A stretch of 64,000 bases of DNA, taken from contig CBDFKF010000001.1 of assembly GCA_965248765.1 (NCBI GenBank), positions 134,772 through 198,771 of the forward strand, in the 5' to 3' direction. Of this stretch, positions 14,435-37,622 are shown in pieces (the first letter of the stretch is position 1; every line of letters begins with the position of its first letter). Position numbers and translations under genes: made by a program. The notes beneath the pieces are model-generated. The model had not been told where the DNA came from. It worked only from the letters and a program-made list of their open reading frames with translations, and ran no database searches. The stretch comes from Alphaproteobacteria bacterium. Lineage in GTDB: Bacteria; Pseudomonadota; Alphaproteobacteria; VGEJ01.

Positions 14435-15325
14435 ATGATGAGCACCGCCGCCCTTTACCTCGCCATCGTCCTGTTCTGGGGAACTCTTTTCTTCGCGGTG
14501 ACATTCCAGGTCGACGCGGTCGCGCCAGAGGTGTCCGTGGCCTACCGCTTTGCGCTGGCTGGCGTGCTCGTCCTTGCGTGGTGCGTATGGCGCAGGCGGC
14601 GCCTTGTTTTCACCTGGCGCCAGCATTTGTTGTTAGCGCTCCAGGGCGTGATCATGTTCTCGCTGACCGATCTCTTGCTCTACAACGCCATTCGCTTCAT
14701 CTCGAGCGGACTCGTTGCTCTGATCCTCAGCACGCTGCCCATCATGAACATCCTGTTCGCCGCGCTGTTGTTGGGGATGCCGATCCGCCCGGTGGTTTTG
14801 GCCGGTGCGTTGATGGGCCTCGCCGGCATCGCCATGGTGTTCTGGCGCGACCTCGCCGCATTCGATTTGTCGAGCCCCGGGCTCATCGGCTTCGTCCTTT
14901 GCCTGGGGACAACCGCAGCAGGCTCGCTCGCGCAGATCCTGTCCGCACGCAATCAGCGGGCTGGCATACCTGTGGTTGAGACCGTGGGCTTCTGTATGCT
15001 CTACGGAGCCGGCTTTTCCACGATCGTATGCCTGTGGCTCGGCCGCTCGTTTACGTGGGACTGGTCAGCCGCATACGTCGTTTCATTTGTTTACATCCTA
15101 TTGCCCTGCACGCTGTTCGCCTGGACGTTCTACCTGGTCGTCCTCGGTCGGATCGGCCCCGACCGCTCCGCCTACGTCAATATCCTCGCCCCGATCGTCG
15201 CGCTGGCCATCTCGACTTTGTTCGAGGACTTCCGCTGGACCGGCCTCTCGCTTGCCGGTGCCGCCGCGATCCTCGGCGGCAGCCTGCTGATCCTCACGAG
15301 CTTCCGCCGCCCCGTCGCAGCCTAG
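14435..15325 (+). CDS. DMT/EamA family transporter
   Basis: About 10 hydrophobic helices, WGT and RF motifs. Confidence 0.9.
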   Translation: MMSTAALYLAIVLFWGTLFFAVTFQVDAVAPEVSVAYRFALAGVLVLAWCVWRRRRLVFTWRQHLLLALQGVIMFSLTDLLLYNAIRFISSGLVALILSTLPIMNILFAALLLGMPIRPVVLAGALMGLAGIAMVFWRDLAAFDLSSPGLIGFVLCLGTTAAGSLAQILSARNQRAGIPVVETVGFCMLYGAGFSTIVCLWLGRSFTWDWSAAYVVSFVYILLPCTLFAWTFYLVVLGRIGPDRSAYVNILAPIVALAISTLFEDFRWTGLSLAGAAAILGGSLLILTSFRRPVAA

Positions 15326-15396
15326 GCGCTTACCGAGACCGGCGGTGCCTGCGAACACGAGCTCGCGTACTCCCGCCCGCGTGTTAGCCTCAGGTC

Positions 15397-16162
15397 ATGC
15401 GTCTGGTGGTCGCCATGATTCTGGCCATCGTCACCTTCAGCTCAGCGGCCACCGCAAGCGGGGTTTGGCGTGCCGGACAAATCCCATCGGATCCGGCAAT
15501 CCGCCTGCTCATTCTGATCCATCAGTTTGAGAGAGTGGTCCTAAGTGCTCCTGAGGGGTTGCTGCACGCCGTTTGGCGCTATGAGACGCCGCTCAGCTAC
15601 GCCCTCGTTAGCGACGATGACGATGCGCTCGCGATCTACGGTCCGGTGATCGAACGGCGCATGGAGCTGTTGGCAGAGCTCACCGGGCGATCGATAACGA
15701 AATCCCCGGTCGCGGCTGCAACGGTCCGTATCGGCCTAGTCCCCGGCCCCGAGGTCTCGCGATTCGTGCGTACGCAAACTTGATATCAGCCGGGACCCCG
15801 AGGCCGGCGCGGTACCCCTGCGCTGCTATGGACTTGCTTTGAACAGCGAGGATGGGGAACTTGGGCGGGCGGCCGTCGCTGTTGCTACCGACTATCCCAG
15901 TCGTGTCATTCGACACTGCATTGCGCAGGAATTGACGCTATTCGTGGGCCTGGTCGGCTGGAGCTGCTTCATTCGGCCGTCGATCTTTTGCCAAGAAGAT
16001 CTGTTGCCAGAGCTCCCCTGGTACGACCGGCTCATGATTCGCGTGCTTTACGATCCAGACCTACCGGCCGGTACGCCCCGCAAGGAAGCGCTAGCCACCG
16101 CGCGCGAAGTCATCGCCAGCTACCTTGTAAACGAGCCACCCCCAGGTGATGTATCGCCCTGA
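15397..16162 (+). pseudogene. DUF2927-like exported protein, copy 1, +1 frameshift near 15778
   Basis: ORFs 15397-15783 and 15839-16162 align end to end with copy 2 if one A is removed from CAAACTT. Confidence 0.8.
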
Positions 16163-16416
16163 ACATCCGCTCGTATACCTACTCCCAGAGTGGGTGTCTT
16201 TCCGGTGTACGGCGAACTGCCCAGCCAAACAGGTATCGCAGCGAGCAAATCGAAGATCCAGTGTCGAGGCTCTGTGAATTCCGCGAGTCCGTGAAGGTCA
16301 GCCTGCTGATCCTCACGAGCTTCCGCCGCCCCGTCGCAGCCTAGGCGCTTACCAAGACCGGGCGGTGCCTGCGAACACGAGCTCGCGTACTCCCGCCCGC
16401 GTGTTAGCCTCAGGTC

Positions 16417-17181
16417 ATGCGTCTGGTGGTCGCCATGATTCTAGCCATCGTCACCTTCAGCTCAGCGGCCACCGCAAGCGGGGTTTGGCGTGCCGGACAA
16501 ATCCCGGCCGATCCCGAAATCCGCCTACTCATCCTGATCCATCAGTTTGAGAGAGTGGCATTGCACGCCCCGGAGGGGCTCTTACCCGTGATCTCGCGTT
16601 ACGAGAGTCCGCTCAGCTACGCTCTCGTTAGCGACGACCGCGATGCCCTGGCGATTTACGGTCCCGTGATTGAGCGACGCATGGAGCAGTTGGCCGAGCT
16701 CACGGGGCAATCCGCGACGAAATCACCGGCAGCGACCGCGACCGTCAATATCAGTTTGGTCCCGGCTGTCGATGTGTCACGATTTGTTGACGGGCATCTC
16801 GATCTTGGCCCTGACCCCGAGACTGATGGGATGTCGTTTCATTGCTATGGCTTCGCCCTCTCGGGCGAACACGCTCAGCTGGAGCGGGCGGCCGTCGCCT
16901 TCGCTACCGACATAATCAGCCGCTTTATTCGGCACTGTATCGCGCGGGAACTCACGAGACTCGTAGGCCTGGCCGGTTCAAGTTGCTTCATTCGGCCATC
17001 GATCTTTTGCCCGGACGACTTGCTGCTGGAGCTCGCCTGGTACGATCGGCTGATGATTCGGGTGCTCTACCATCCAGACCTGCGGGCCGGTACACCCCGC
17101 AAGGAGGCGCTAGCCACTGCCCGCCAAGTCATCGCCAGCTACCTTGTAAACGAGCCACCCCCAGGTGATGTATCGCCCTGA
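16417..17181 (+). CDS. DUF2927-like exported protein, copy 2 (intact)
   Basis: Signal peptide; RHCIARELT, RPSIF, DRLMIRVLYHPDLRAG resemble the DUF2927 C-terminus. Confidence 0.75.
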   Translation: MRLVVAMILAIVTFSSAATASGVWRAGQIPADPEIRLLILIHQFERVALHAPEGLLPVISRYESPLSYALVSDDRDALAIYGPVIERRMEQLAELTGQSATKSPAATATVNISLVPAVDVSRFVDGHLDLGPDPETDGMSFHCYGFALSGEHAQLERAAVAFATDIISRFIRHCIARELTRLVGLAGSSCFIRPSIFCPDDLLLELAWYDRLMIRVLYHPDLRAGTPRKEALATARQVIASYLVNEPPPGDVSP

Positions 17182-20277: not shown

Positions 20278-20497
20278 ATCGCGCTCCTGTTCCTAACGTG
20301 AGTGCGCGGCGCACCATGCTGCGACCCGCCGCAACCTAGCAGATGTGATGGGCCTAACCGAGTGCGACATGGGATCGACCGTTCAGAGGTCAACTTGCAT
20401 GCGTCACGGCCACCCCTCGTTGCTTGACTTTCATGGGGCTCGGGCAAACAGTGCGCCCGAGCGCAAGGCCCTGACCGAGCGTGAGATTCGCGGCGTC

Positions 20498-21079
20498 GTG
20501 ATCCATAAGACCGCTTCCATCCACCCGACTGCCTGCATCGACGAGCCGGTGGAAATCGGCGCTGGTGCCCGCATCTGGCATTTCTGCCACGTGCTCGCGG
20601 GCTCGCGCATCGGCCGCGATTGCGTCATCGGCCAGAACGTGATGATCGGGCCCGATGTGGAGATCGGCGATCGCTGCAAAATCCAGAACAACGTCAGCGT
20701 CTATCCCGGCGTTACGCTGGAGGACGGCGTGTTCTGCGGACCGAGCTGCGTTTTCACCAACGTGATCAACCCGCGCGCCGAGATCGAACGCAAGGACGAG
20801 TTCCGACCGACCGTGGTGCGTCGCGGGGCGACCATCGGCGCCAACGCCACCATCGTCTGCGGGGTCACGCTCGGGGCGTGGTGCCTGATCGGCGCCGGCG
20901 CCGTCATCGTCCGCGACGTCCCCGCCTTCGCCCTCATGGCCGGCGTACCGGCCCGGCGCATCGGCTGGGTTTCCCGCGCGGGCGAGACTCTGGGCCCGGA
21001 TCTCGTGTGCCCGCGCACCGGCGAGCGGTATGCGCTGAGCGCCAACGAGACGCTGGTCGAAGCCGAAACGGCCGCCTGA
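20498..21079 (+). CDS. Sugar N-acetyltransferase, WbpD/WlbB-like (hexapeptide repeat); start uncertain
   Basis: [32 protein letters not shown]. Confidence 0.88.
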
Positions 21080-22242
21080 TGAGCCGCACCGCTGCCACCA
21101 CCACCGCAGCGCTGGATGCACCGCTGCCGTTCGTCGATCTTGCGGCCCAGCAGCGCCGGCTCGGCCCCCGGCTCGACGCCGCGATCGCGGCGGTCCTCGA
21201 CCACGGCCAGTTCATCATGGGGCCTGAGGTCGCAGCCCTCGAGGAGGCCCTCGTCGCCTTCTGCGGCGCCCGTTTCGCCGTGAGTTGCGCGAACGGCACC
21301 GATGCCCTGTGTCTTGCGCTGATGGCCAAGGGGATCGGCCCGGGCGATGCGGTGTTCGTGCCGGCTTTCACGTTTGCGGCGACCGCCGGGGCGGTGGCGC
21401 TTGGCGGTGCGGTGCCGGTGTTCGTGGACGTCGATGCGACGAGCTTCAACATGGATCCGGAGAGCCTCGCGCCGGCGGTCGAGTCCATTCGCCGGGGCGG
21501 CACACTGCGCCCGGCGGCCGTCATCCCCGTCGATCTGTTCGGCCAGCCGGCCGATTATGCCGAGGTCGGGGCGATCGCCGATGAGTACGGCCTGGTGGTC
21601 ATCGCCGATGCCGCGCAGAGCTTCGGTGCCACCTATCGCGCCAGGCCGGTCGGCACCTTGGCGGCGCTGACGACGACGAGCTTCTTCCCGGCCAAGCCAT
21701 TGGGCTGCTACGGCGATGGCGGGGCGATCTTCACGGGCGATGCGGCGGCGGCCGAGACGCTGCGCTCATTGCGCCAGCATGGCCGGGGGCGCGACAAGCA
21801 CGACATCGAGCGCGTTGGCACCAACAGCCGGCTCGATACCCTGCAGGCGGCGATCCTGCTGGCCAAGCTCGAGGTGTTCGCCGACGAGCTCGTGGCGCGG
21901 GGGGACGCGGCGCGGCGTTACGGCGAGGGCTTGGCCGATGTGGTCGAGGCGCCGAGGCTGCCGAGCGAGGCGACATCGAGCTGGGCGCAGTACACGATCA
22001 AACTTGACAATGGTGACACGGTGGCCGCCCGAATGAAGGCGGAAGGCATACCCGCGGCTGTGTATTATCCTAAGCCAATCAACCATTGCGCGGCCTACGC
22101 ACACTGTCCCACCGCGCCCGGCGGCACCCCGGTGGCGGAGGCATTGACGGGGCGGGTCCTCAGCCTGCCGATGCACGCCGACCTCGATCCCGCCACCCAG
22201 GACCGCATCATCGCGGCGGTGCACCGGGCCGTCCGAGCCTGA
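21079..22242 (+). CDS. DegT/DnrJ/EryC1 aminotransferase, WbpE-like
   Basis: ANGTDAL, DAAQSFG, SFFPAKPLGCYGDGG, NSRLDTLQAA. Confidence 0.93.
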   Translation: MSRTAATTTAALDAPLPFVDLAAQQRRLGPRLDAAIAAVLDHGQFIMGPEVAALEEALVAFCGARFAVSCANGTDALCLALMAKGIGPGDAVFVPAFTFAATAGAVALGGAVPVFVDVDATSFNMDPESLAPAVESIRRGGTLRPAAVIPVDLFGQPADYAEVGAIADEYGLVVIADAAQSFGATYRARPVGTLAALTTTSFFPAKPLGCYGDGGAIFTGDAAAAETLRSLRQHGRGRDKHDIERVGTNSRLDTLQAAILLAKLEVFADELVARGDAARRYGEGLADVVEAPRLPSEATSSWAQYTIKLDNGDTVAARMKAEGIPAAVYYPKPINHCAAYAHCPTAPGGTPVAEALTGRVLSLPMHADLDPATQDRIIAAVHRAVRA

Positions 22243-23128: not shown

Positions 23129-24043
23129 TCAGTCCCCCTCGTAGCGGCTGACGCCGAAGATGACATAGTTGTAGGGGATGAGGGCATTGGGCTCGATGCG
23201 GGAGACGATAAGGCCGCTCTTGGGTTCATAGAGCCAATCGTCCCAGGTCCAAACGCGCTGCAGGCTCTCAGGGATCTGGACCGCGATGTAATCGCCCTCA
23301 GCGAGCCGCGCGCCCATGGCCGTGCCGGCGAAGTCGAGACCCAGGTAGCAATCCTGGACCGAGACGTTGCGGTTCCGCTTCGCGACGCTCTTGGTGAGCG
23401 CCAGCGCCATGCCGGCCAGCGGCGCGATTGCCGGCTGCACCGTCGTCGCCAGCTTCAAACCTTTCTTGAAGGCATCACCCTCGAGAACATCGAGGAAGGC
23501 TTCGTCGGCGTCGTTCTTCACGTTGACCGTGTGGAAATGAAAGGCGACGCCCTCCGCGCTGAGGCCGAGGCCAACGAAGATGGGATAGCCGCGGACCGCC
23601 GCGCGCTTGCCCTCTCGCACCCGGTAGGTGGCGTTGAAGTGCAGGTCCTCGGAGGCACCGGGCACTTGGTTGCGGGCGTAGAAGTCTAACAGCACGCGGT
23701 GCGTGCCGCCGCCGGGATAGTCCGCGACCCGGAGCCCGTTGAGCGCGATCTTGATGCGCTGGTCCTTGAGCGATGTGTCCGCCGCCACCTCGCCGACGCC
23801 GAGGATGGCGCGCGGCTCCGCGCCGCCGTCGGTCGGCAGGAACCCGATGCTGTGCGCCGTGTGCTGAAAATGGCGCTCGCGAAACGGCCACAAATCGGAC
23901 AGGCCGAACCGCGCCGTACCCGCCGCCGCCTCCCCGACCGCATCCGCCGCTGCGTCCTCTTCCACCTCGCGCAACTTGGCCGCCGCGTCCGAGCGCGACA
24001 GCGCCCCGATCACCGGCAGATCATCGAACGGAGCGCCGCTCAT
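23129..24043 (-). CDS. Uncharacterised 304-aa protein coupled to the CHAT-NTPase-TPR gene
   Basis: Intact ORF, ATG overlaps upstream TGA (ATGA 24043-24040); beta-rich with central amphipathic/hydrophobic helical segment. Confidence 0.85.
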   Translation of the reverse strand: MSGAPFDDLPVIGALSRSDAAAKLREVEEDAAADAVGEAAAGTARFGLSDLWPFRERHFQHTAHSIGFLPTDGGAEPRAILGVGEVAADTSLKDQRIKIALNGLRVADYPGGGTHRVLLDFYARNQVPGASEDLHFNATYRVREGKRAAVRGYPIFVGLGLSAEGVAFHFHTVNVKNDADEAFLDVLEGDAFKKGLKLATTVQPAIAPLAGMALALTKSVAKRNRNVSVQDCYLGLDFAGTAMGARLAEGDYIAVQIPESLQRVWTWDDWLYEPKSGLIVSRIEPNALIPYNYVIFGVSRYEGD

Positions 24044-27000
24044 CCGCTTCCCGCCTGCGCTTCGGCCTGGTCGATCGCGGCGATCAAGTCCTCGGTGTGT
24101 TGGATGTCGTCCGCCGCACGATCGCCGAATTCGCGGAAGTTGGCGAGCGCCGCGTCGGCGTAGACGCGGGCGTCGTCCAGCCGGCCCGCTGCAGCCAGCA
24201 CACGGGCGGAGTTGCGACGTGTCACGCCGGCTCCGTGGAGATCACCAGCTTGCTCACAGTAGCGAATGTCCTGCTGGAAGTGATGCAGCGCGCGGTCGAT
24301 GTCGCCAGCATTGGCCCAAATGGTGCCGAGCTGGTTGTGAATAACACCGCGATCGTGGACGGCAGTGTCGGGCAGCAGGTCGAGCGCGTCCGTGTAAGAT
24401 CGCATCGCGTCGGTGGGGTGGCGGGCGAGCTCGTCGGCGGGCCGTTCGGCATCGCGCGCTTCCTCAAAGCGTTCGCACGCGACGCCGCCGAGTTGGGCGA
24501 GAGACCTGCCGCGGCCGAGGTCGTCGCCCGGCGCCCGCAGGTCCAGGCGCTGTCGGTACCAGCGCTCGGCCTCATCGAGATCGCGCAGCTCGACGATGTC
24601 CTTGTAGGCATGGCCCAAGTTGAAGGCGCACACGCCCTCCGCGACGGTGTCGCCGATGGCCTTATCAAGGCCGAGGGATTCGCGGTAGGTGTCGGCGCAG
24701 GCCGGGTCCTCCTGTTCCCGTTGGATGTCCGCGAGTTCGTGCAAGGCTACAGACAAACGGCGGATGACGTGGCGCTGCTGAGCGTCTCGGTTCTCGGGCG
24801 CGGCATCCAGCGCCGGTCCGACGTGTTGCCGGTTGTGTCCTACGTCCGCGTGCTGTAGACGCTCGGCCGCTGCCCAGTCGGCTCCTCCCGGGCCAGACGC
24901 ACGCGGTACTCCACTGCTCCTCGAGGCCGGGCAGCGGGCCAGTGCTCACGGGGTCGACGAACTCCGGGATTATGGCCTCCACCAGCCGCCGCCAGGCGGC
25001 GGCGCGGCCGGTGTCCATATACAGCGTCCGCAGGCCCTGCATCACGTTGATTGTGCAATCTCTCCAGCCGCGGTCACGGGCGAGGTACCAGGCGGCGAGC
25101 AGGTTGTCCTCCTCAACAGCGACGACCGATAGGAGGTCGCGATTACCTTTCTGGTACTGCTCGCTGTAGTAGTTGCCGAGTGCTCCCATCGCTACTACGA
25201 AGGCGCGGCGGGCGCGGTCGGCGTCGCCGGTCCCAGGCGGGTAATGCCGCTCAAACAGGTTGCGGAAGTACCAGGGCAAAGCCGGGTGGATGGCGTAGTA
25301 GCCGCCGCTGCGAGCATTCAAAAGGCCGATTTCGGCGGCACGGTCGAGCAGGGCGATGCCCTGCTCCCTCGTCAGCCCGCGCACCGCCTTAAGGCACCAG
25401 TCCTTGTCCGGATCACCCATCATGCGCAGCGCGTCGACGTCGACGAAGCCCTGGAACAGGTGTAGGAGCGCCAGCACCTTACGCTCGTCCTCGTCGAACG
25501 CGCGGCCGAAGCCGTAGGACAGGGAGGCGCCGAGAGATCGAGAGCGACCCTCAGTCCCCTCGTCCTCGAACGCCGCCTCGCCGGTACGGAGGCTTTCAAC
25601 GAAGGCGTCGAGCCGCTCCTTCGTGTCGACGCCGGTACGGAGCGCTTCACCGACGGCGATCAGGATGGTCAGCGGGTTGCCTTGCGTGAAGTCGAGCAAC
25701 GGCGTCAGATCCGGCATGTCGGCCAAGCGCGCGCCGCGATTCTTGGCTATAGCGCTGGCGAGCTGCAGGCGCTCCTGCATCGGCATGGGTGGCACGCGCA
25801 CGCGACGCGGCAGCTCCCCGAGCCACGTTTGCTCGTCGCGGCGCGAGGTGAGAAGGAACTTGGCCTTCGTCTCGCGCCCAGCATCGAGGAAGGCGCGCAG
25901 CCCCTCCTGTTCCTCGGCGCTCCATTCGGACTCGGTGCCCGCGGGGAATCCCGTGATCGGCTCGACGTTGTCCCAGATCCACGGCACCGGCACCTGTTTC
26001 AGGACCTGCAAGGCAATATCCCGACGCTTGGTCGTATCGGTTTCGGCGTCCCACTGGATGCCGGCACCCTCTAGCGCCTGGCTGAAGACCTCTCCGATCT
26101 TGTCAAGGACGCGCGCGAGCGGCAGATGGCGCTCAAAGCTAGTGAACAGCACCGGCCCCTCGACGCCGCCAGTCAGCGCGTACCAGCGCGCGAACTCCAC
26201 CGCGGTCGCCGTCTTGCCGCTGCCGGCGTAAGCATGCAGCAGCACGAAAGAATGGGTGTCGAAGGCGCGATCGAGGGCGTAGAGCGTCTCGTCGCGGCCG
26301 AAGAAGCCGACCTCCGGCGGCGCCGGCAGCGCCGCATCGAGCGCGCCGGGCCGCGCCGCCGCTCCTTCGTCCAACGTGATTCTGATCGGCGCGGCGTCCG
26401 CCTCGGGCCACAGGCGCAGCGGCGACGGCTCCCACACCACCGGCACCGACCAATCCTGCAACGCCCGCGCCTCGTAGGCGATCCGTCGTTCCGGCTGGTC
26501 GGCCAAGTTCTTGCGCGCCCACGCCACCGCCTCTCCCAGCGTCCGCCCGCGCGCCAGCGCCCCGTACAGCTCGGCCACGAACTGCGCCGCCGTCACCACA
26601 TAGACCGAGTAGCGCATAGCGACCACGCCCGCGGCGCCGGCGTCCATAACCGCCTGCGCCAGGGAGCCGTAGGCCGCGATCTCCTCGCGCGTATCCTGCG
26701 CCGTCGCAGTCTCCGGCTCTGCTGGCGCTTCGGCGAACGCCGATTGGCAGGCGTTCAGGACGAGAAGCGGAACACCCGACTCGCGCAAAAGCGCGCCAAG
26801 CTGCAAGCCATCGACGAACTCGCTCCGCGTTTCGCTGCCGGGATCCTCGAACATCAGGAAACCGTGGGCGCCAGCCGTGCCTCCGGCGTCCAGTCTGAGG
26901 TTGCTCAACACCTTGCCAACGTTCGCGAGATCGGCCGGATCGGCGTACGCACCATGCCCGTCGAAATGAACGACGTGGTACGGCCGTTCCTGCTCCTTCG

Positions 27001-27658
27001 CGAGGCGCTGCGCTGCGGCCGGCTGCTCGTATGTGGGCGGACGCAGGACATCGAGGTCGAACGCACCGCGCGCCTCGTCGCTGAGGCGCGTCACCAGCCG
27101 CCCGGCGACCGAGCGGAATGGCACATCATCACCGCCTTTCGGCCGGCAGATGACTAGCAAGATTCGGACCTTCTCCGCCTCCTGCTTGTGCGGCAGCAAA
27201 GCGGCCATCGTGCCACGCTGGCCCCTTACGAAGGCTTGCGCTGACAGCGCGAGCGGGACTTCAAGGCGCGGATCGCGGATCAGCTCCCACGGGATCGCCG
27301 TGGCCTCGGCGATCTCCGTCGTGACCTCAATGCGCGTATCCGCGAGCCGCGGCCCGATCGCCCCCCACAGTTCACGCAGGTCGTCGGAGCCATGGAAGAT
27401 GTCGCGGAACAGCTCTTCGTCGCGCTCCGCCAAAAGCACTTCGACCTGCTTTGCGATCAGCGGTGCAGGGTCGTGGTCAAACTGGAGGAAGTCCTCGAGA
27501 TACCAGCGGATGCGTTCTTGATCGTGCGGCGACAGCTGAAACGCGATCTCGGTACTCCGGCTCTGTGGCTGAAGGCCGGGAATATCCTCGGCGCTGACCT
27601 CGATGCGGTAGCGGTTCTCGGCGGCGCCGGGATGCTGATTGATGCGCAGTATCGGCAT
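24040..27658 (-). pseudogene. CHAT (caspase-like) protease + STAND/NB-ARC-like NTPase + TPR protein, two frameshifts at about 24880-24912
   Basis: HFDGHG and LNACQS catalytic His/Cys motifs, FFGR, Walker A AYAGSGKT, Walker B WIWDNVE, TSRR, GNPL; TPR repeats continue across three frames (EEQWS / EYRVRLAREE / DWAAAERLQ). Confidence 0.88.
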
Positions 27659-28005
27659 ACGACCACCCTCCCCGCCGCGAACGGCTGATTTCTCGTCAAC
27701 CTCGTGGCCCAATAATAGTGAGAAAATGGTGCGACCACGAGCATAGGTTGCGACTACTAGCTAGGCGCCATCTCCAGCTGCGTATTCTCGCACCGCTCGA
27801 TCTCCGCTCGCCAATCCACAACGGCGGCCTCAAACGCGGCTTGCGGCTACTCCGACTGTCGTATCTACCGTTGAGCCGTGGCCGCTCTAACCTTCAGACC
27901 TGTCGTCAGGGCTCTTGGTCGGCAATTGTTGCGCGTCCCGGGCCATCAATGAACGTCCGCGCGCGCGAGTGACGCCGAGCCGGCATCAATCTGTCGCGAC
28001 GCTCG

Positions 28006-28121
28006 CCCTCAGGATGAGGTGGGCCAGGCATTCAAAAACCCGACCTCATGCGACGCGCCGTCTCGAACCATGAGCGCTCGTGTCATCCTTCGAGACGCAC
28101 GCGATGCGTGCTCCTCAGGAT
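28006..28121. repeat. Cluster of palindromic intergenic repeats (alphaproteobacterial REP-like)
   Basis: TCATCCTTCGAGACGCACGCGATGCGTGCTCCTCAGGAT hairpin plus CTCAGGATGAG and GTCTCGAACCATGAG remnants. Confidence 0.6.
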
Positions 28122-28140
28122 TAGGAGAGAGGCGTGGCCA

Positions 28141-28292
28141 GGGGAGCGCGGTGGTGCTGCCGTCGCCGGTGACGTAGCTGGCCTTGTCGGAGCGCAGGAA
28201 TAGGCAGGCGTTGGCCTTGTCCTCGGGCGTGCCAATGCGGCCCAGGGGCACCGCGCTGGCGATCGCCGCCTGGATTGTCCGCCTTGCCTCCC
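28141..28292 (-). pseudogene. Degenerate copy of the 3' end of the SDR gene at 35985-36734
   Basis: [28 protein letters not shown]; 15-bp deletion and lost stop relative to intact gene. Confidence 0.85.
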
Positions 28293-28377
28293 GCCCGCTG
28301 CCCGGCGCGGATTCCGGAGGCTGCCGCCACTACCGCCGGGCCGGCGATCGTTACGCCTTCCGCCGGCTATCCACCGA

Positions 28378-28658
28378 TCAGGGCAGCGCGCCGACGATCT
28401 GGCGGAACTCGGCATCGCCGAACGCCCTCAGCGTCGTCGTGCGGACATTGCCGCGCGAGCCCATCATGAGCGCAAAGCGCGCCGCCACTTCATTGCTTGG
28501 CACCTCGACGATGGCGACGGCATCGTAGCCGCCCATCGTCAGATAGAAGTCCTTCATCTCGCCGCCGAGCTCCTTGAGCGCCTGCCGCGCGGCGTCGAGC
28601 CGGCTCGGCGAGTCCTTGATGGTTGCAACGCCCTGCTCGGGGTGACGAATGTGGCCAT
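28378..28658 (-). pseudogene. GYD domain protein with 5' frameshift deletion (absent from ORF track)
   Basis: EQGVATIKDSPSRLDAARQALKELGGEMKDFYLTMGGYDAVAIVEVP...GNVRTTTLRAF; RBS plus ATG 28658 out of frame. Confidence 0.82.
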
Positions 28659-28820
28659 TGCTCCCTCCCTTTCGCTATCCGGCGGATTCACCATCGCCGG
28701 GTGGTCCAGATTAGCAGCGTTGCGCACCCGCCGTGCACGGTGACGTCGCCACCATCCGCCGCCCGATCAAAGGGGGGACGGGTGTGGGTCGACGGTGAAA
28801 CGCGCCTCGTGGCGAGGAGG

Positions 28821-28883
28821 CCCTCACCTCCCGCTCGGCTTTCGCTCGCGGGTCCCTTCCTCTCCCGCCGGGCCGGAGAGGGT
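28821..28883. repeat. Palindromic REP-like element
   Basis: CCCTCACC...CCTCTCCCGCCGGGCCGGAGAGGG nested hairpins. Confidence 0.65.
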
Positions 28884-28900
28884 CAAGTTGCGGATTGGAG

Positions 28901-29044
28901 TTAGGGGAGCGCGGTGATGCCGCCGTCGACGATCAGCTCGGTGCCGGTGATGTAGCTGGCCTTGTCGGAGAGCAGGAACAGGCAGGCATTGGCCATGTCC
29001 CCGGGCGTGCCGATGCGGCCCAGGGGCACCGCGCCCGCGATCGC
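28901..29044 (-). repeat. Near-identical copy of the last 144 bp of the SDR gene (35985-36128)
   Basis: Manual alignment gives 4 mismatches in 144 bp; includes the stop codon. Confidence 0.92.
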
Positions 29045-29169
29045 CGCGGGACATAGCGGGAGGACGGCGGCAGCAGGCCGGCAGAGTCCGCAAGAAGTGA
29101 TATAGTCGATGTTGGCATTGTCGGGGCAAGTTGCTTGCCCCGCGCGCAGCCATCGCCCGGGAGGGAATC

Positions 29170-30297
29170 ATGAGACTCGGAATGTTCATGCAACCGGTGC
29201 ACGACCCGAAGCGCGACGTCCACAGGCTGTTCATGGAGGACCTGGAGGTCGCGACCTATCTGGACGAGCTCGGCTTCGATGAGTTCTGGTGTGGCGAGCA
29301 CTACGTGGTCCGCGCCGAGCCGATCCCATCACCAATGATTTTTCTCGCTCAAGTAGCGCAGCGCACGAAGAAGATGAAGCTCGGTACCGGGGTGATCTGC
29401 CTGCCGCAGGCGCATCCGGCCCGCATCGCGTCGCACATCGCCTTCCTCGATCACCTGTTGGAGGGCCGGTTCATGTTCGGCGTCGGGCCCGGCGGCATCC
29501 TCGCCGACCTCGAGATGTTCGGCGCGCCCGATCCATCTCAGCACGCGAAGATGATGCAGGAATCGCTCGACATCATCCTCGATCTTTGGTCGCAGGACGA
29601 GCCGTTCCGTCCAGTCGAGGGCGAATACTGGAACTTCAAGGTGAGCGAGAAGTTGCACTTCGATCGCCACGGCATCGGCCTGACCTTGAAGCCGTATCAA
29701 AAGCCGCACCCACCGATCATGATGCCGGCGATGAGCCCGTCGTCGGGAACCATGAGGTTGGCCGGCGAGCGCGGCTACATCCCGGTCTCCTCGCAGCTCA
29801 TCCCGACCTACAGCGTCGCCAGTCATCTGCCTACGCTACAGGAGGGGTGTGAGGCGGCGGGACGCGTGTTCGATCCTGCGAACTGGCGAGTGGGCCGCAG
29901 CGTGTTCGTCGCCGAAACCGACGCCGAGGCGGAGAAAGAGGTGCGATCGGGCGAGCGGCTCGATGCCGACTATTACTACCGGTACTGCTACGACATCATC
30001 GATTACAGCGGCATGAAGAAGATGATCATGCCCGATCCGGCGATGATCGGGACCGCCGCCGCCGACGAATACAAACGTCAGGATTACATGCGCGACAACC
30101 TCATCTACGGCAGTCCCGACACCGTCGCCGAGAAGTTGCTCGCGTTCCGCGAGGAGGTCGGCCCGTTCGGAACCCTGATCTTAGGCGCACTCGACTTCCC
30201 CGATGTCGAGCTGCACAAGAACTCGGTCAGGCTGGTGGCCGAGGAGGTCATGCCGCGCATTCGCGCCGCGATCGGCGAGCAGGCGGCGGCGCAATAG
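29170..30297 (+). CDS. LLM-class flavin-dependent oxidoreductase (paralog of 10298-11404)
   Basis: MRLGMFMQP, GFDEFWCGEHY, KPYQKPHPPI shared with the earlier LLM gene. Confidence 0.92.
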   Translation: MRLGMFMQPVHDPKRDVHRLFMEDLEVATYLDELGFDEFWCGEHYVVRAEPIPSPMIFLAQVAQRTKKMKLGTGVICLPQAHPARIASHIAFLDHLLEGRFMFGVGPGGILADLEMFGAPDPSQHAKMMQESLDIILDLWSQDEPFRPVEGEYWNFKVSEKLHFDRHGIGLTLKPYQKPHPPIMMPAMSPSSGTMRLAGERGYIPVSSQLIPTYSVASHLPTLQEGCEAAGRVFDPANWRVGRSVFVAETDAEAEKEVRSGERLDADYYYRYCYDIIDYSGMKKMIMPDPAMIGTAAADEYKRQDYMRDNLIYGSPDTVAEKLLAFREEVGPFGTLILGALDFPDVELHKNSVRLVAEEVMPRIRAAIGEQAAAQ

Positions 30298-30646
30298 CGA
30301 AGAGACCTCGGTCCGGGGGAATGGACGCGGCCGAGACTGTTGTGGCACGGAGACGGCTGTGTCTGATCGCGAGCCTGGTCGCGCTCGTGATGTGTTCGGG
30401 AGGCGCGCTGGCTGGTAGTGAGCCGGTGCCACCCGCAGCGACCGAGGTGGCAGCGCCGGTCGGTCACGGTAACTTCCTGAATCTGGAGGCCAGAGCCGCC
30501 TACAACCGGACGGTCGTGCTGCAGGAGCTGGCGCTGACGGATCTGGTGGCGGAGCTTGGGGCCGATCACCCCAACGTGGCTGTTCGGCTCAATGATCTGG
30601 CCGGCATCCACCACGGCTGGGGCGAGCGCGGTAGGGCCGATCTCAT

Positions 30647-32309
30647 CCCGGATTCCCTAGATAGATTGCAATTTTACTGACCTTGGGCGCCGATTCTAAT
30701 ATAAGAATCAATAGCTTGTCACTACTTTGGGGGCTCGGTCATAGCGTACCCGATGGGTGAAGCAAAATTGGAGCCTTCGGGTCGATTTCGACCGGCGCCT
30801 GAAGCTGGAATTCCACGGCAGCGACATCTCATCCGATGGTGGTCTTCTTCCCTACCGCGAGCTCGACGATGCTCTCGGGCTGACCGAGCTGGGCGGAGAG
30901 GTTCTGTCGGAGACGCGGCGTGGCAAGAACACCCGACATATCCTGGTGGGACTTCTTCGGCAATCAGTGTTCGGCCGTCTTGCTGGTTATGAGGACGTGA
31001 ACGATGCCCAGCGCCTGTCGCACGATCCCGTCATGCGCGCCATCGTGGACCGTAAGGGCCTGCCTCGACCAGCCAGATGGGAAGGTTCGAGACGGAATGG
31101 CTGGCGACGGATGATAACCTGGCGGCATTGACCGCCCTGTCCGGCGTTTGGATCGACCGGGTGCACGACCGCCGACCGCCGAAGATGATCATCCTCGACA
31201 TGGACAGCAGCGTCAGCCCGACCCATGGCGGACAGGAAGGAACCGCCTACAACGGCCATTTCGGCTGCTCCTGTTACCATCCGCTGTTCTGCTTCAACCA
31301 GTTCGGCGATCTTGAACGGTGCGCCCTGCGTCCCGGCAACGTGCATAGCGCCCATGGCTGGCGCGAGGTGCTGGAGCCGGTCGTTGAAAGATACCGAAAA
31401 CGGAAGCTGCGGCGCTACTTTCGTGCCGATGCCGCCTTCGCCTCGCTGGAGGTGTACGAGTTCCTGGAGGCTGAGGGCTTCCTGTATGCGATCCGCCTTC
31501 CTGCCAATCGAGTGCTGTGGGAATACATCGCGCACCTGCTCACGCGACCGGTTGGCCGTCCGCCTAATCATGTACGACGCTACTACGCCAGCTTCGGCTA
31601 CCGGGCCAAGAGCTGGGACAAGGCCCGCCGCGTCGTGGCCAAGGTGGAGTGGCATCCCGGCGAGCTGTTTCCCCGTGTCGGGTTCATCGTCACCAATCTC
31701 AGCCGGCCTGCCGAGCGGGTGGTGGCCTTCTACAATCGGCGCGGCACGGCGGAGCAGCACATCAAGGAGGGCAAGAACGCCATCAACTGGACACGGCTTT
31801 CCTGCCACGGCTTCCGCAACAACGAGGTGCGCCTTCAGCTGCACGCGCTCGCCTACAACCTGGGCAACTTCCTGCGCACGCTTGCGCTGCCCGAGGCGGT
31901 GGAACATTGGTCGCTGACGACGCTTCGGGAAAAGCTAATCAAGATCGGCGCCAAAGTCGTGCGCCACGGTCGCTATATCACGTTCCAACTCGCCGAAGTC
32001 GCAATCTCGAGAAGCCTGTTCGCAAACATCCTGTGCCTGATTGATGATCTGCGACCAGACCCCCTACCGCCATGACGGCGTTCCAGCCTGCTGCATCGAG
32101 GTCGATCGACAGGCTGGGTTGTGCGCTGTCCATGCCACGGCGCGCCCCCGGAACGTGAAATGACCATTGGGCACGGTCTCGCATCGCCCAATCAGCCCGA
32201 TAAAGGCCCGATCACGACCTGCCAAGCCAGTTTGGAGGCGGATTGGTGTTGGGGCGCCCGGAGTGTTACCGTCGTTGGCAACCGCGGAGAGCCATCTGGG
32301 GAATCCCGG
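30647..32309 (+). mobile_element. IS1380-family insertion sequence, 1,663 bp
   Basis: 16-bp imperfect IRs CCCGGATTCCCTAGAT / ATCTGGGGAATCCCGG; 5-bp TSD CTCAT at 30642-30646 and 32310-32314. Confidence 0.93.
30753..32075 (+). pseudogene. IS1380 transposase with two 5' frameshifts (about 30773 and 31060)
   Basis: SSDGGLL, LDMDSS, YHPL, RADAAF, YNRRGTAEQHIKEGK; N-terminal part spread over three frames. Confidence 0.88.
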
Positions 32310-32588
32310 CTCATATACCGGCAGGCTTTGCGGATCGCTGAAAAGGCCTTCGATCCGGGGCATCCGAGCGTAACGACGATCCTCCTAAACTATTCCTTGT
32401 TGCTCACAGACCTCGGGCGTAGCGTGGAGGCACGAGAGCTGAAGAAACGCGCAGACGAGTGGCACACCGTTGAAGTAAGCGACGATGGTTTGGAGGTGCC
32501 GATTTCCTACCACTGAAAGTATCTGAAAGACCGTTTGGTAATTGTCTCGACCACAATGTGTCCACTGAAGAAACCCAGGGAGGGCGTG

Positions 32589-33992
32589 ATGGACGATAGA
32601 GCATACCAGGTCTACAAGCGGACGATGGCCCTGGCGGAACATCACCGCAGAACGGCGGTGACCCGGCGGCGCATGATGCAGCTCACCGCGGCGAGCTCGA
32701 TCGCCGCAATTACTGCAAACTTTGCGCCGCGGGAGGTCCAGGCGGATGTATCGGGCAAGTTGGTGCACTTCTCGGCCGCTGGCAAACGGCTGGATGGCGC
32801 CTGTCGTGAAGTGATCCCGTTATTCCAGAAGCTGTACCCCAACGTCGACATCGAACTCGCGTCGATCCCGATGAGCGAGTTCGAACGCAAGACGCTCACG
32901 ACCATGCGCAACAAGAGCGACGCGTACGACACGATCCTGGTGGACTACGGTTTCTGTACGACCCTCGACAAGATGGGGGCGATGGTGCCGCTTCAACCCT
33001 ACGTCGATCAGGATCCTGGGTGGTACGAGGACTACGTGAACGACGTCAGCGAGGCCTACCGGCTCTTCTACAACGTGCCGCTCGGCGACCCGAATGGGAC
33101 GCTCTACGGTTTGGCTTTCGATGGCAACGTCAACATTCAATACTACCGCAAGGACGTCTTCGAGAAGAAAGGGCTCAAGCCCCCGTTGGTTTGGGACGAG
33201 GTGCTCGACGTCGTCAAAGAGCTGCATGATCCGGACCGTGAGGTGTACGGATTCGCGGCTCACCTGAAGCGCGACTTCTGGGCCGGGATTCCGTTTTACG
33301 CGATCATGCTGGCCCACGGTGGCAACTGGTTCGACAAGAATGAGCCGGGCGGCTGGAATCCCCAGTTTGAAAGCGAAGCCGGATATCAGGCGCTCAACTA
33401 CCTTACCCAGCTCAAGCCCTATGCCCATCCACTGTCAGCAAACGCCGGGGAAGATGAGATCAACACCACGTTTGCCGACGGCAGCTCGGTGTACAGCCCG
33501 ACCTCGATGGGCGCCGCGGTGGTCAACGATGCGTCGTTCTCGAGGCATCACGCGGACTGGTTCTTCGAGATAGTGCCGCGCGGCGCCAACGCCGAGGGCG
33601 TTCACAAGTCGATATCCGGGGGATTTGGCAACATTGTCCCCACCTTCGCCTCGAACCACGATCTCGCGTTCTTGTGGACGAAGTTCATGTGTTCGGGTGA
33701 CAGGGACTACCCCGAGATTGGGGACGTCCAGGTCGCGGCCGGTGGCCAGCCTGCGCGGACGACGACGCTTAACCGCTACCGAGCGCAGAAGCCCTATCTC
33801 GACGGGTTGATGCGGTCTTACCCCTACGTGACCCCGTGGATCGTCAACATCCCCGAGGGCTTCACCATCATGGTTCTCATAGGTGAAGAAACGGCGGATG
33901 CGTTCAACGGCGTTATCGACATCGAGACCGCGCTCAAGAACATGGACAAGAAAGTCCGCCGGCTGATGGAGAAGTCAGGCTACTACGGCTAA
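32589..33992 (+). CDS. Carbohydrate-type ABC transporter substrate-binding protein, Tat signal
   Basis: TRRRMMQL twin-arginine motif; YYRKDVF..GLKPP..WDE. Confidence 0.9.
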   Translation: MDDRAYQVYKRTMALAEHHRRTAVTRRRMMQLTAASSIAAITANFAPREVQADVSGKLVHFSAAGKRLDGACREVIPLFQKLYPNVDIELASIPMSEFERKTLTTMRNKSDAYDTILVDYGFCTTLDKMGAMVPLQPYVDQDPGWYEDYVNDVSEAYRLFYNVPLGDPNGTLYGLAFDGNVNIQYYRKDVFEKKGLKPPLVWDEVLDVVKELHDPDREVYGFAAHLKRDFWAGIPFYAIMLAHGGNWFDKNEPGGWNPQFESEAGYQALNYLTQLKPYAHPLSANAGEDEINTTFADGSSVYSPTSMGAAVVNDASFSRHHADWFFEIVPRGANAEGVHKSISGGFGNIVPTFASNHDLAFLWTKFMCSGDRDYPEIGDVQVAAGGQPARTTTLNRYRAQKPYLDGLMRSYPYVTPWIVNIPEGFTIMVLIGEETADAFNGVIDIETALKNMDKKVRRLMEKSGYYG

Positions 33993-34021
33993 ACGCGTTC
34001 CGGCGTGGCGCGAATCAAGAC

Positions 34022-34960
34022 GTGAGTAAGGTGCGGAGTGAGACCTGGCTGCCGCCACGGGCAGCCAGGTCCCGCCGCCTCTTGTGGGGTGGTTACGGGT
34101 ATCTGCTGCCGTGCCTGATAATCCTGTTCGGATCGGCGATCTTTCCCCTGTTCTACGCGGGTTGGGTCTCGTTTAGATACGAGCCGCTGTTCGACCCGAC
34201 GATTGCTCATTTCATCGGCTGGGAGAACTACGAGGAGCTGTTCGACGACGTCCGCTTCTGGGAGAGTATGCGCCTCACCATCCTTTGGACGATTGTCGTC
34301 GTCAGCATCCAGATGGTCTTGGGCTTTCTCGTCGCTGCCCTTCTCGATCGCAGGATGCGCGGGATCGGGATCCTCCGCACATTGTTGATCATCCCGGTGT
34401 TCATCTCACCGGTCGCCATGGGGCTGACCTGGCGCTTCATCTTCGAGCCGGTCAATGGGCTCGCCAATTGGATCCTTCACTCCGCGTTGGGCCTCGAAAA
34501 GGCGACCTGGCTTTCGAGCACCGACACCGCGCTCAGCACCATCATGATCGTCGACTGCTGGCAATGGACGCCGTTCGTCGCTCTGATTCTCCTAGCCGGC
34601 CTGCAGAGCATTCCTGTGGAAGTCACCGAGGCGGCTCGCTTGGACCGGGTGCGGGGCATCACCTACTACATGCGCATCGCCATACCCATGATCCGGCCCG
34701 TCATCCTCGTCGTTCTTTTGATCCGGCTAGTGGATTCCATCCGCATCTTCGATGTCGCCTATATTATGACCAAAGGCGGACCCGGCAGCTCCACGCTGTT
34801 GGCGAGCGTCAACGCGTATTTTACGTTCGAAGCGCATCTCATCGGCAAGATGGCCGCCTACGGGTTCTTCATACTCCTGCTCGTCAACATCATCGTCGTT
34901 CTATTTCTGAACACGCTCTACCGCCAGGAAAAGGCAGCCCGGGCCCAGGCAACGCCATGA
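34022..34960 (+). CDS. Carbohydrate ABC transporter permease
   Basis: WQWTPF..LILLAGLQSIP..EAARLD; TKGGPG. Confidence 0.92.
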   Translation: MSKVRSETWLPPRAARSRRLLWGGYGYLLPCLIILFGSAIFPLFYAGWVSFRYEPLFDPTIAHFIGWENYEELFDDVRFWESMRLTILWTIVVVSIQMVLGFLVAALLDRRMRGIGILRTLLIIPVFISPVAMGLTWRFIFEPVNGLANWILHSALGLEKATWLSSTDTALSTIMIVDCWQWTPFVALILLAGLQSIPVEVTEAARLDRVRGITYYMRIAIPMIRPVILVVLLIRLVDSIRIFDVAYIMTKGGPGSSTLLASVNAYFTFEAHLIGKMAAYGFFILLLVNIIVVLFLNTLYRQEKAARAQATP

Positions 34961-35778
34961 CTACGACACCCTTGCAGCGGTGTTTGAACTGGCTCGCGGT
35001 CATTGTCGTTGGGCTATGGCTCGTTCCCGTAGTGTGGGTGGCGCTCAACTCGATCAAGCCCAACTACGACATCAACTCGCCGGTGCCGGTCGTTTTCGAT
35101 TTCGAGCCAACGACGGACCACTACTTTGAGATTTTCGACCGCTTCCAGTTCGACGAAGCGATCGCCAACAGCCTTATCGTAGTGGGGCTTTCGACGCTGA
35201 TCGTGATGTTGATTGCAATGCCGGCCGCCTATGCCTGCGCGCGGATTGGGCTGAAGGGCGCCGACACCTGGGCAGTCGTTATTCTCTCCCTGCGGTTTAT
35301 GCCCGCGGTGGTCGTCGTTCTCCCCTACTACATGATGGCGACCTGGGTCGATCTGGTCGACAGTCGGACGGTTCTGATCGTCGTTTATATCGCGTTCGGG
35401 CTGCCGTTCGCGGTCTGGGTCCTACGCGGATTTCTGTTGGACCTTCCGCGGGAAGTCGAGGAGGCGGCACGCCTGGACGGGTTGAGGCGATTGCAGATCA
35501 TCTGGCGCATCATTCTGCCAATGGCGATGCCGGGGGTGGCGGTAACGACGATATTTACGTTCGTATTCAGCTGGAATGAGTTCCTGTTTGCGCTGTTCCT
35601 GACTGACTACAAGGCGACAACCATTCCGGTCGCCCTGCAGAAAACGATAGATCAATACAATGTGCTGTGGGGCTCGCTGAGCGCCGGCGCAGTGATCCAG
35701 CTGTTGCCAATGCTCGTGGTGGTGTTCCTGCTGCAGCGCCACATCGCCCGCGGCCTCGCGCTCGGCGCCGTCAAGTAA
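34957..35778 (+). CDS. Carbohydrate ABC transporter permease
   Basis: EEAARLDG, FSWNEFLFAL, GLALGAVK; ATGA overlap. Confidence 0.92.
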   Translation: MTTTPLQRCLNWLAVIVVGLWLVPVVWVALNSIKPNYDINSPVPVVFDFEPTTDHYFEIFDRFQFDEAIANSLIVVGLSTLIVMLIAMPAAYACARIGLKGADTWAVVILSLRFMPAVVVVLPYYMMATWVDLVDSRTVLIVVYIAFGLPFAVWVLRGFLLDLPREVEEAARLDGLRRLQIIWRIILPMAMPGVAVTTIFTFVFSWNEFLFALFLTDYKATTIPVALQKTIDQYNVLWGSLSAGAVIQLLPMLVVVFLLQRHIARGLALGAVK

Positions 35779-35984
35779 GGCAGGGAATATTGGGACGCCT
35801 CCCGCAGGCACAGGGATTAACTTTCGGGCCGGCGACTTACTTGCGGCAACACCAACCCTTCCATGTCGGCTCCTGGCTATTCGTAGCCGTCGTATCCACG
35901 GTCGAGGTGTGACCGCTCTCGCCTTGAGAACGGTCGTCAACGCCCGGGGCAAAACAAGATGCGCCTGATGGAAGCGCGTCGGGG

Positions 35985-36734
35985 TTAGGGGAGCGCGGTG
36001 ATGCCGCCGTCGACGATCAGCTCGGTGCCGGTGATGTAGCTCGCCTTGTCGGAGAGCAGGAACAGGCAGGCATTCGCCATGTCCTCGGGCGTGCCGATGC
36101 GGCCCAAGGGCACCGCGCCCGCGATCGCGGCCTGGACGTCGGCCTTGCCTTCCCACCGGGCCTGCATCGGCGTCATCGTCGCGCCCGGCAGGATGACGTT
36201 GGAGCGGATACCCTCACCCGCGAACTGGACGGCGATCGATTTGGACAGCGTGCGGATCGCGCCCTTGGAGGCGCCGTAAGCCTCCTGCGGCTTGGGATCG
36301 CCCCTGAGCGCCTGGACCGAGGAAAAATGGACCATGGCGCCGCCGCCGGCCTTGCGCATCTCCGGGATGACGTGGCGCGCGGTCAGCACGAACGATTTCA
36401 GGTTGATGGCGAGCACCACGTCCCAGACGTCGAGATCCATGTCGAGGAGGGATTTATCGCGGTCCAACCACAGCACGCCAGTGGTGTTCACGAGGTAGTC
36501 GAGGCGGCCGAACGCGGCCACCGTCTCGGCCACCGCGCTGGCGACGAAGGCCTCATCGGTCGCATCGCCGCGGTGATAGCGGTGCAGGCCAGGGCCCGCG
36601 GCAATGTCGGCGGGTCTCTCCTTGAGATCGAGCAGCGCGGTGTCGCAGCCCTCAGCGATGAGCGCGTTGGCGATGGCGAGACCCATGCCGCCGCCGGCGC
36701 CGGCGACCAGCGCCGCCTTGTCGGCAAAGCTCAC
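35985..36734 (-). CDS. Short-chain dehydrogenase/reductase (intact parent of the 3'-end copies)
   Basis: [23 protein letters not shown]. Confidence 0.92.
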   Translation of the reverse strand: MSFADKAALVAGAGGGMGLAIANALIAEGCDTALLDLKERPADIAAGPGLHRYHRGDATDEAFVASAVAETVAAFGRLDYLVNTTGVLWLDRDKSLLDMDLDVWDVVLAINLKSFVLTARHVIPEMRKAGGGAMVHFSSVQALRGDPKPQEAYGASKGAIRTLSKSIAVQFAGEGIRSNVILPGATMTPMQARWEGKADVQAAIAGAVPLGRIGTPEDMANACLFLLSDKASYITGTELIVDGGITALP

Positions 36735-36765
36735 GGCATCGTCTCCCCTGCCCTACGCGGCACTA

Positions 36766-37622
36766 TCATGCAGACAGCGCGGCCAGATCATCAGGGAGCA
36801 AGCGCAACCGCGCGGCAGCGACGTTCTCCTCGAGATGCGCCACCGAGGAGGTCCCCGGAATGGGTAGCATCACCGGCGAGCGGGCGAGCAGCCAGGCGAT
36901 CCCGAGCTGGACGGGAGTCGCGTCGGTGCGGGTGGCGATCCGCGCGAGCCCGCGCATCTCGCCGCGGTTGCCCGCGCCCAGGGGAGGAACGCGATTCCCT
37001 CGCGCTCGCACTCCACCAGCACGTCGTCGGACGAGCGGTCGGTGTGGTTGAAGCGGTTTTGCACGGCCTCGATGGGCACGATCGCGCGGGCGCGGCGCAG
37101 CTCCTCGACACTCACGTTGGAGAGGCCGATGTGGCGGATCTTGCCCTGGGTCTTAAGGTCAGCAAGCGCGCCGACCGAATCCTCCAGGGGCACACGCCGG
37201 TCGACCGTGTGGAGCTGATAGAGATCGATGCGTTCGAGCTTGAGACGCTTGAGGCTGGCCTCGCAGGCGCCACGCAGGTGCTGAGGCCGGCAGTCCGGGT
37301 CCCAGCGCTCGCGCCGCGGGCGCACCACCCCGCCCTTGGTCGCGATCACCAGGCCCTCAGGGTATGGATGCAGGGTCTCGGCGATGCGGCTCTCGCTGAC
37401 CTCGGGCCCGCAGGCATCGGCGGTGTCGATCAGGGTAATGCCGAGGTCGACAGCGCGCCGCAGCACGTGCCCGGCTTTCTCAGGATCAGGCTCGCCCCAG
37501 GACCCGGGACCGGTCAGCCGCATGGCCCCGAACCCGAGCCGGTCGACCACGAGATCGTCACCGAGCTTCAGGGTTCCTCCCGGGCGATCGCAGTCAGGCG
37601 TAGCCGCCGGTCTCCGGGGCAT
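36766..37622 (-). pseudogene. Aldo/keto reductase with frameshift at about 36980
   Basis: LGFGAMRL, IDTAD, IDLYQLH, HIGLSN in one frame; [24 protein letters not shown] in another. Confidence 0.85.

Follow-up and report, generated by a model that had tools for sequence, protein, structure and literature searches.

How does a protein-coding gene come to be followed by two further copies of its own 3' end, each lying behind a block of unrelated genes? The question arises from a 64-kb stretch of genome G000 (C1:134772-198771; the genome comprises 4.59 Mb in four contigs and is 98% complete), hereafter the window, in which an intact gene of the SDR family is trailed by two displaced copies of its tail, here numbered copy 2 and copy 3 (Table 1). 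The initial annotation, made from the letters of the window, saw an integrase-free accretion island in which the SDR 3' end served as a repeated, att-like integration point. Our results point, as the probable answer, to two additive insertions, one after the other, of chromosomal DNA that came from related bacteria, anchored by homology in the SDR gene and brought about without a recombinase of their own.

Alignment to the intact tail confirmed both fragments and the direct orientation of all three copies. Copy 2 is identical to the intact tail at 145 of 151 positions (96%), retains the TAA stop codon and has exactly four mismatches within 28901-29044, just as the initial annotation had counted. 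The third copy, placed there at 28141-28292 and described as more decayed, is equally real (28140-28292). It differs by 17 substitutions over 152 aligned coding sites, by a deletion of 15 nt and by an insertion of 1 nt, and its stop codon is gone; identity is 80% over ~168 alignment columns when gaps are counted. The proposed increase of decay with distance holds for copy 3 as compared with copy 2, these two fragments being all that stands behind the trend. BLAST with the SDR tail gave E-values of 2e-65 and 3e-39 for the two fragments; further genomic matches reached only ~75% and are probably paralogous SDRs, and no further copy was found in the window beyond copies 2 and 3. The two fragments start 22 nt apart, copy 2 at gene nt 604 and copy 3 at nt 582. 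A second homology lies outside the coding sequence, as an 86-nt intergenic segment behind the intact SDR has a homolog (~75% identity) that sits, past a set of hairpins, behind copy 3 and not behind copy 2. The local alignment score of this pair, 67, was reached by none of 1000 random genomic segments (best 47), and the segment has no other occurrence in the genome.

Two cargo blocks are bracketed by these tails. Block 2 (6937 nt) holds a luciferase-like monooxygenase (LLM) gene, a TPR gene split by an insertion sequence (IS) of the IS1380 family, and genes for a solute-binding protein and two permeases, and block 1 (604 nt) contains a GYD gene together with a dispersed hairpin. Pfam searches bore out the identities first given to the LLM, TPR::IS1380 and GYD cargo and to the flanking CHAT gene; of the ABC operon, the solute-binding protein and the two permeases stood, and the cluster lacks an ATPase gene as judged by Pfam. 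The ABC genes converge on the SDR, and their GC content at third codon positions ranks between the 32nd and 45th percentiles genome-wide. The hairpin after copy 2, called REP-like (repetitive extragenic palindrome) from the start, indeed has 21 BLAST matches in the genome, itself included. No match to PF01797 (REP-associated or IS200 transposase) was found in the 98%-complete genome, and no structured RNA was matched in Rfam at E<=0.1 within 27000-37500.

The arrangement is shared by other strains. The window was compared with Logan contigs in eight run comparisons (X16 twice; X2-X14, with small word shares, were left out). X15 is identical to the window and may be its source; since it shows no differences, it was not counted as independent, and X1 had no long contig matching the window. 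Contigs of X18, X19 and X20, each with its own single-nucleotide polymorphisms, bridge both copy 2 junctions, and copy 3 is spanned by single contigs of X15, X16, X19 and X20. Block 2 was present in 4 of 4 runs compared across it, including X16, X17 and X19. Copy 2, without a listed internal difference in X18 and X20, is the same in the strains compared, and the intact tail of X16 differs from copy 2 at four positions, as it does here. Because block 2 and copy 2 are common to these strains, the insertions predate their split. The IS1380-family element is a later, strain-specific insertion, as its 1668 nt are skipped in X16, X17 and X19 (joint 30641 to 32310), leaving the TPR pieces adjacent; near-identical copies of it occur elsewhere in G000. 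A second strain difference is seen in the GYD gene, which is 13 nt longer in X16, X19 and X20 than in the frameshifted version here. The arrangement is fixed in the strains seen, and an active or site-specific island is not supported. No excision or circle joint was found among the joints listed, in contigs that drop rare variants. As a side observation, X16 diverges from the window at 29087 and lacks a long contig across 28777-29086, a gap that proves nothing alone, and in one X18 contig 1.9 kb of unlike sequence leads into 28675; these departures at 28675-29087 are possible strain variants of block 1 or copy 2.

The substitutions in the tails bear on the direction of the events. At four synonymous sites copies 2 and 3 agree with each other and differ from the intact tail, and one further change is private to copy 2. 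This four-versus-one split has a P of 0.008-0.013 under local duplication with neutral decay, and because it is improbable on those terms the intact tail most likely comes from another allele; judged from the nucleotide states, the last ~150 nt of the intact SDR are likely the incoming (donor) allele. Unlike two-copy cases, the three-copy arrangement lets changes be polarised, and it points to the intact tail as the newcomer. The presence of the 86-nt homology behind the intact gene as well as copy 3 suggests that the sequence downstream of the intact SDR came from the orthologous chromosomal site of a relative. The cargo is family-typical: the gene order LLM, solute-binding protein, permease, permease is also present in the relative G002, and paralogs occur in G000.

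We infer the donor, the order of events and the route of recombination as follows. Incoming DNA would carry an SDR tail allele together with its donor's downstream sequence, and a crossover in the shared tail would rebuild a whole SDR gene ending in the donor allele. The far end would be joined, by an illegitimate joint or via a small circle, at a non-fixed point 150-170 nt ahead of the resident stop codon, leaving the resident tail stranded behind the cargo. A first event would have brought in the 0.6-kb hairpin-GYD block and stranded copy 3, a second the 6.9-kb ABC-TPR-LLM block and stranded copy 2, and the IS1380-family element would have entered after both. As a variant, unequal crossover between strains carrying one block each would lead to the same arrangement.

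The same footprint occurs at unrelated genes genome-wide, and the SDR is therefore not a special target. A scan of G000 gave 372 local repeat pairs, of which 54 passed the filters on copy number, identity and length, with gene calls from a simple caller that misses short or frameshifted genes. In 10 of the 54 only one arm lay in a called gene: seven pairs, at six genes, had the 3' end repeated downstream in direct orientation, one had it upstream, two were internal and none involved a 5' end. The genes of the seven pairs are the SDR (twice), a pyridine-nucleotide oxidoreductase, an APH-family kinase, asparaginase II, a DAO-family oxidoreductase and a gene that, from its sequence, we take to be mutS; a yjbR-like gene, missed by the caller, adds one more 3' case. 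These targets are unrelated and mostly accessory genes. The duplicated coding length varies from 76 to 393 nt over the seven pairs, and the cargo of 1-5 kb is often one whole gene (a TPR protein, panE-like, LysE or LLM). At mutS the site is empty in G003 and G004, where an EamA gene directly follows it, and at the yjbR-like locus a 79-nt segment adjoining the repeated tail is itself repeated behind a 456-aa open reading frame (ORF) without a Pfam match. Other genome samples contain the footprint too: 1.65 Mb of G001 gave one 3' case and three 5' calls, one of them convincing, so that strict 3' polarity was not reproduced there, 0.8 Mb of G011 gave one 3' case, and 1.12 Mb of mixed loci gave two cases. 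The footprint, including a 5' case, is therefore a common scar whose 3' bias is not absolute, and the 5' mirror case in G001 is one that a sequence-independent process would permit.

Table 1. Features of the SDR locus and its flank (positions in the window), and comparable loci elsewhere.
Feature	Position	Strand	Remarks
Intact SDR gene, 249 aa	35985..36734	-	Pfam adh_short_C2 PF13561, E 4.5e-61
Copy 2, displaced SDR tail	28897..29047	-	Gene nt 604-750 with 4 nt more; retains stop; a single private substitution
Copy 3, older displaced SDR tail, decayed	28140..28292	-	Gene nt 582-748; stop lost
Intergenic segment behind intact SDR, 86 nt	35867..35952	-	Homologous to 27837-27925
Old resident copy of SDR-downstream intergenic segment	27837..27925	-	Local alignment with 35867-35952
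Block 2 ABC cargo: sugar-type solute-binding protein and two permeases	32586..35778	+	Pfam SBP_bac_1, BPD_transp_1
Block 2 TPR gene, two pieces (30321-30641 and 32310-32516)	30321..32516	+	TPR_12 on C-terminal piece, below cut-off
IS1380-family insertion sequence, frameshifted, within TPR gene	30642..32309	+	PF13701 (DDE_Tnp_1_4)
Block 2 luciferase-like monooxygenase (LLM)	29170..30297	+	PF00296
Dispersed palindromic REP-like hairpin after copy 2	28800..28890	.	21 BLAST matches
Block 1 GYD-domain gene, frameshifted near start	28378..28658	-	PF08734
Low-copy hairpin repeats between copy 3 and old intergenic segment	27975..28135	.	2-5 BLAST matches each; alignment gap
CHAT-AAA gene, flank older than both insertions	24665..27658	-	PF12770; without bracketing SDR tail
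mutS tail repeat, 110 nt, 85%, 3.4 kb downstream	G000:C4:2770032-2776194 (L124)		Encloses IS and LLM gene
APH-family gene tail, 95 nt, around single panE-like gene	G000:C4:664776-667171 (L128)		Block GC 0.54
Nested yjbR-like case	G000:C4:1767169-1770596 (L129)		56-nt tail repeated behind LysE gene
5' mirror case (presumably a cysteine-synthase-like gene, with a HigA-like gene between the repeats)	G001:C3:1372327-1374246 (L168)		First 147 nt of gene repeated upstream, one-gene cargo

Three other parts of the window deserve mention. In the flank, 23129-27658 holds the CHAT-AAA gene, then a TPR ORF in another frame and then a 304-aa ORF without a Pfam match, which together look like one frameshifted caspase-like system. 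At 14435-17181 units of ~1020 nt recur in tandem (63 nt at 98%, 300 nt at 72-87%); they cover DUF2927-type ORFs as well as the tail of the 14435-15325 gene, and possibly arose by the same process as the SDR tails. The DegT-type aminotransferase gene at 20420-22242 has a 94-96% identical protein copy at C4:2170211-2171300.

Several points weigh against homology-anchored insertion of a relative's DNA. The 86-nt segment could also ride in the attachment region of an element and is no proof of a chromosomal donor. The search for a donor found none, as no block 2 cargo gene adjoins an SDR ortholog at >~30% identity among loci L001-L123. Over the pooled repeats the excess of synonymous differences is weak (51 of 92 with four double-counted sites removed, p 0.007-0.09) and disappears when the asparaginase locus is left out (27 of 54, p 0.15-0.43), and later ordinary recombination in the intact gene could explain the allele pattern at the SDR. 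The bias towards 3' ends in G000 (6 genes to 0, p 0.03) matches the outcome of integrase action. Matches to ComEC, DprA and Ku in G000 speak for homology-anchored insertion, but those to ComEC and DprA carry little weight, as they were also obtained in 10 and 11 of 14 control genomes, respectively. Homology-facilitated illegitimate recombination in the laboratory usually deletes, rather than duplicates, resident DNA. Finally, among the strains compared no empty allele of the SDR site, of the kind that the initial annotation proposed to seek in relatives, was seen, and none of the 15 joints listed of 50 skips block 2.

Of the alternatives, the one that survives best, and that we nevertheless regard as unlikely, is that decayed elements with a replacement tail integrated in tandem at the SDR, after which they shed their integrases or depended on mobilisation in trans, in an accretion of the type known for cis-mobilizable elements (CIMEs). 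The 3' polarity fits, and parallels have been described: prophage e14 leaves an icdC fragment with largely synonymous differences from icd (PMC13626634), and integrase-free CIMEs stack in tandem at gene 3' ends (PMC5704250). A recombinase acting in trans, as the initial annotation proposed to look for, would have candidates in G000, where profile searches gave 42 matches to PF00589 (tyrosine recombinases) and 2 to PF07508 (large serine recombinases). Neither these nor the 3 matches to PF00239 fall in the window, the nearest PF00589 match being at a tRNA-Cys about 41 kb from copy 3. The observation that no integrase is visible was thereby upheld and extends to all comparable blocks, as recombinase similarity was found in 0 of 8 cargo blocks at protein genes, not even as a remnant, versus 5 of 8 blocks at tRNA-type repeats (Fisher p 0.026; the tRNA blocks are larger). 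Classical tandem accretion was itself observed in G000 at a tRNA-Lys (C2:190099-227986) and a tRNA-Phe (C2:550394-581993), each with two displaced tRNA fragments, one block with an integrase and one without.

No crossover point shared by both events was seen (starts at nt 604 and 582), a comparison that erosion or extra donor homology could blur, and the repeats are far longer than the 8-60 bp attachment cores of integrative and mobilizable elements (PMC5704250). In a survey of SDR orthologs (69 of 107 loci examined, distant or truncated matches dropped, a few contigs present twice), none of the 40 loci with >=7.3 kb of downstream sequence had a duplicate of its own tail, so the SDR family as a hot spot across taxa was rejected. 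The orthologs in G001 and G005, of the same family (71-74% protein identity), lie among other genes and lack a tail duplicate, and neighbours differ in other genera as well. No sibling element was found at the ortholog loci, in viral_contigs or in phages. A degenerate SDR tail pattern had no match in viral_contigs, phages gave nothing attP-like (only short matches at <=87% or partial ones at ~74%), and no att-like SDR tail was present among the best 20 of 347 plasmid matches. With starts that differ, no duplicate at ortholog loci and the same footprint at unrelated genes, the att-like character first ascribed to the repeats is not supported. Two successive insertions behind the SDR stop codon are supported, a site-specific or active target is not.

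Local duplication of the target during break repair, by end joining or template switching and followed by decay and allele exchange, has a slightly smaller chance still of being correct. A Ku match is present in the genome, some cargo is clearly foreign (the panE-like gene, block GC 0.54), the genome-wide synonymous share is compatible with this explanation once the asparaginase locus is set aside, and long target duplication has been tied to double-strand breaks (PMC2853133). At the SDR, an extra allele exchange would be needed to account for four synonymous changes in the intact tail versus one in copy 2, and the 86-nt homolog behind the intact gene and copy 3 but not copy 2 would be unexplained.

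We give poor odds to a more general process, a trans-acting and sequence-tolerant capture that would add cassettes of 1-5 genes behind the stop codons of arbitrary genes, regenerating their tails, stackable and 3'-biased; it is just as doubtful that such a process would be a gene-tail counterpart of integron accretion without a recombinase in cis. The same 9-mer opens SDR copy 2 (29039-29047) and the oxidoreductase fragment (G000:C3:181193-181201), which in a capture process would hint at a preferred joining site; it has 774 copies in the genome and is absent at the other five junctions. The template repeats of a diversity-generating retroelement, or retro-copied gene ends, are a very remote prospect. 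A direct downstream copy of a ~150-nt 3' end does resemble a template repeat, but at none of the six differing positions does copy 2 carry an adenine on the coding strand, which largely rules this out, copy 2 is unchanged among the strains compared, and near fragments lie solely downstream in direct orientation. No reverse transcriptase was recognised by Pfam among 20 ORFs scanned, in a scan that included no profile search aimed at this enzyme. That the tail copies are a product of assembly is next to impossible, as the copies differ from one another and contigs from other studies bridge the junctions of copy 2 (X18, X19, X20) and span copy 3 (X16, X19, X20).

Metabolic accessory genes have here built up downstream of an ordinary enzyme gene with no mobile-element machinery, twice at the SDR and at least six times in the genome, and island finders that rely on an integrase or a tRNA would miss such insertions. 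The SDR locus reveals no new mechanism, and its features are shared in part with several known systems. Like e14 at icd, it has a protein-coding target restored by a replacement tail and a displaced fragment with mainly synonymous differences, whereas e14 is a 15-kb element with SOS-induced, site-specific excision (PMC13626634) and no recombinase, phage gene or fixed crossover was found here. The CIMEs derived from streptococcal integrative and conjugative or mobilizable elements likewise stack, as blocks without an integrase, at the 3' end of their target gene, but they are bounded by attL and attR with 8-60 bp cores, and parents with integrases recur at the same target (PMC5704250), neither of which was seen here. 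Also comparable are the effector-immunity arrays and orphan Rhs 3' ends of the Vibrio cholerae type VI secretion system, for which homology-facilitated illegitimate recombination has been proposed: there too, insertions follow one another by one-sided homology, older parts are pushed downstream and no integrase is known (PMC5361080). In V. cholerae it is toxin tails and immunity genes, subject to conflict selection, that are displaced, whereas at the SDR it is a near-identical enzyme tail, and the cargo has no relation to it. Serial displacement through one-sided homology has also been proposed for dimorphic loci generally (PMC2884548).

The closest relative is insertion with long target duplication (Nobusato et al. 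2000, cited therein; Furuta, Abe and Kobayashi 2010, PMC2853133), in which an insert of <20 kb without a mobile-element gene lies between variable, imperfect direct repeats of >30 bp and the host species are mostly naturally competent; the tables of that study include repeats of ~400 bp at 93-99%, and the mechanism has been recognised for DNAs beyond restriction-modification systems (PMC3457768). In the literature covered, which excludes most subscription journals, we found no account of long target duplication recurring serially at a single protein-coding tail. Here as well the direct repeats exceed 30 bp (151 nt at 96%; ~168 columns at 80%) and vary in length (76-393 coding nt over the seven pairs), and the inserts (6937 and 604 nt) are below 20 kb and without a recombinase, the IS being a later addition. 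An empty-site allele, none of which was seen at the SDR, is present for mutS in G003 and G004. The cargo in the published cases, which were screened for it, is restriction-modification and the targets are intergenic or partly genic (PMC2853133). Here the cargo is LLM, TPR, ABC and GYD genes, the gene is restored by a repeat that is itself a coding tail, and two such events are stacked. Taken together, the locus is best understood as a stacked case of an already known class of insertion without an integrase, and not as a dedicated element.

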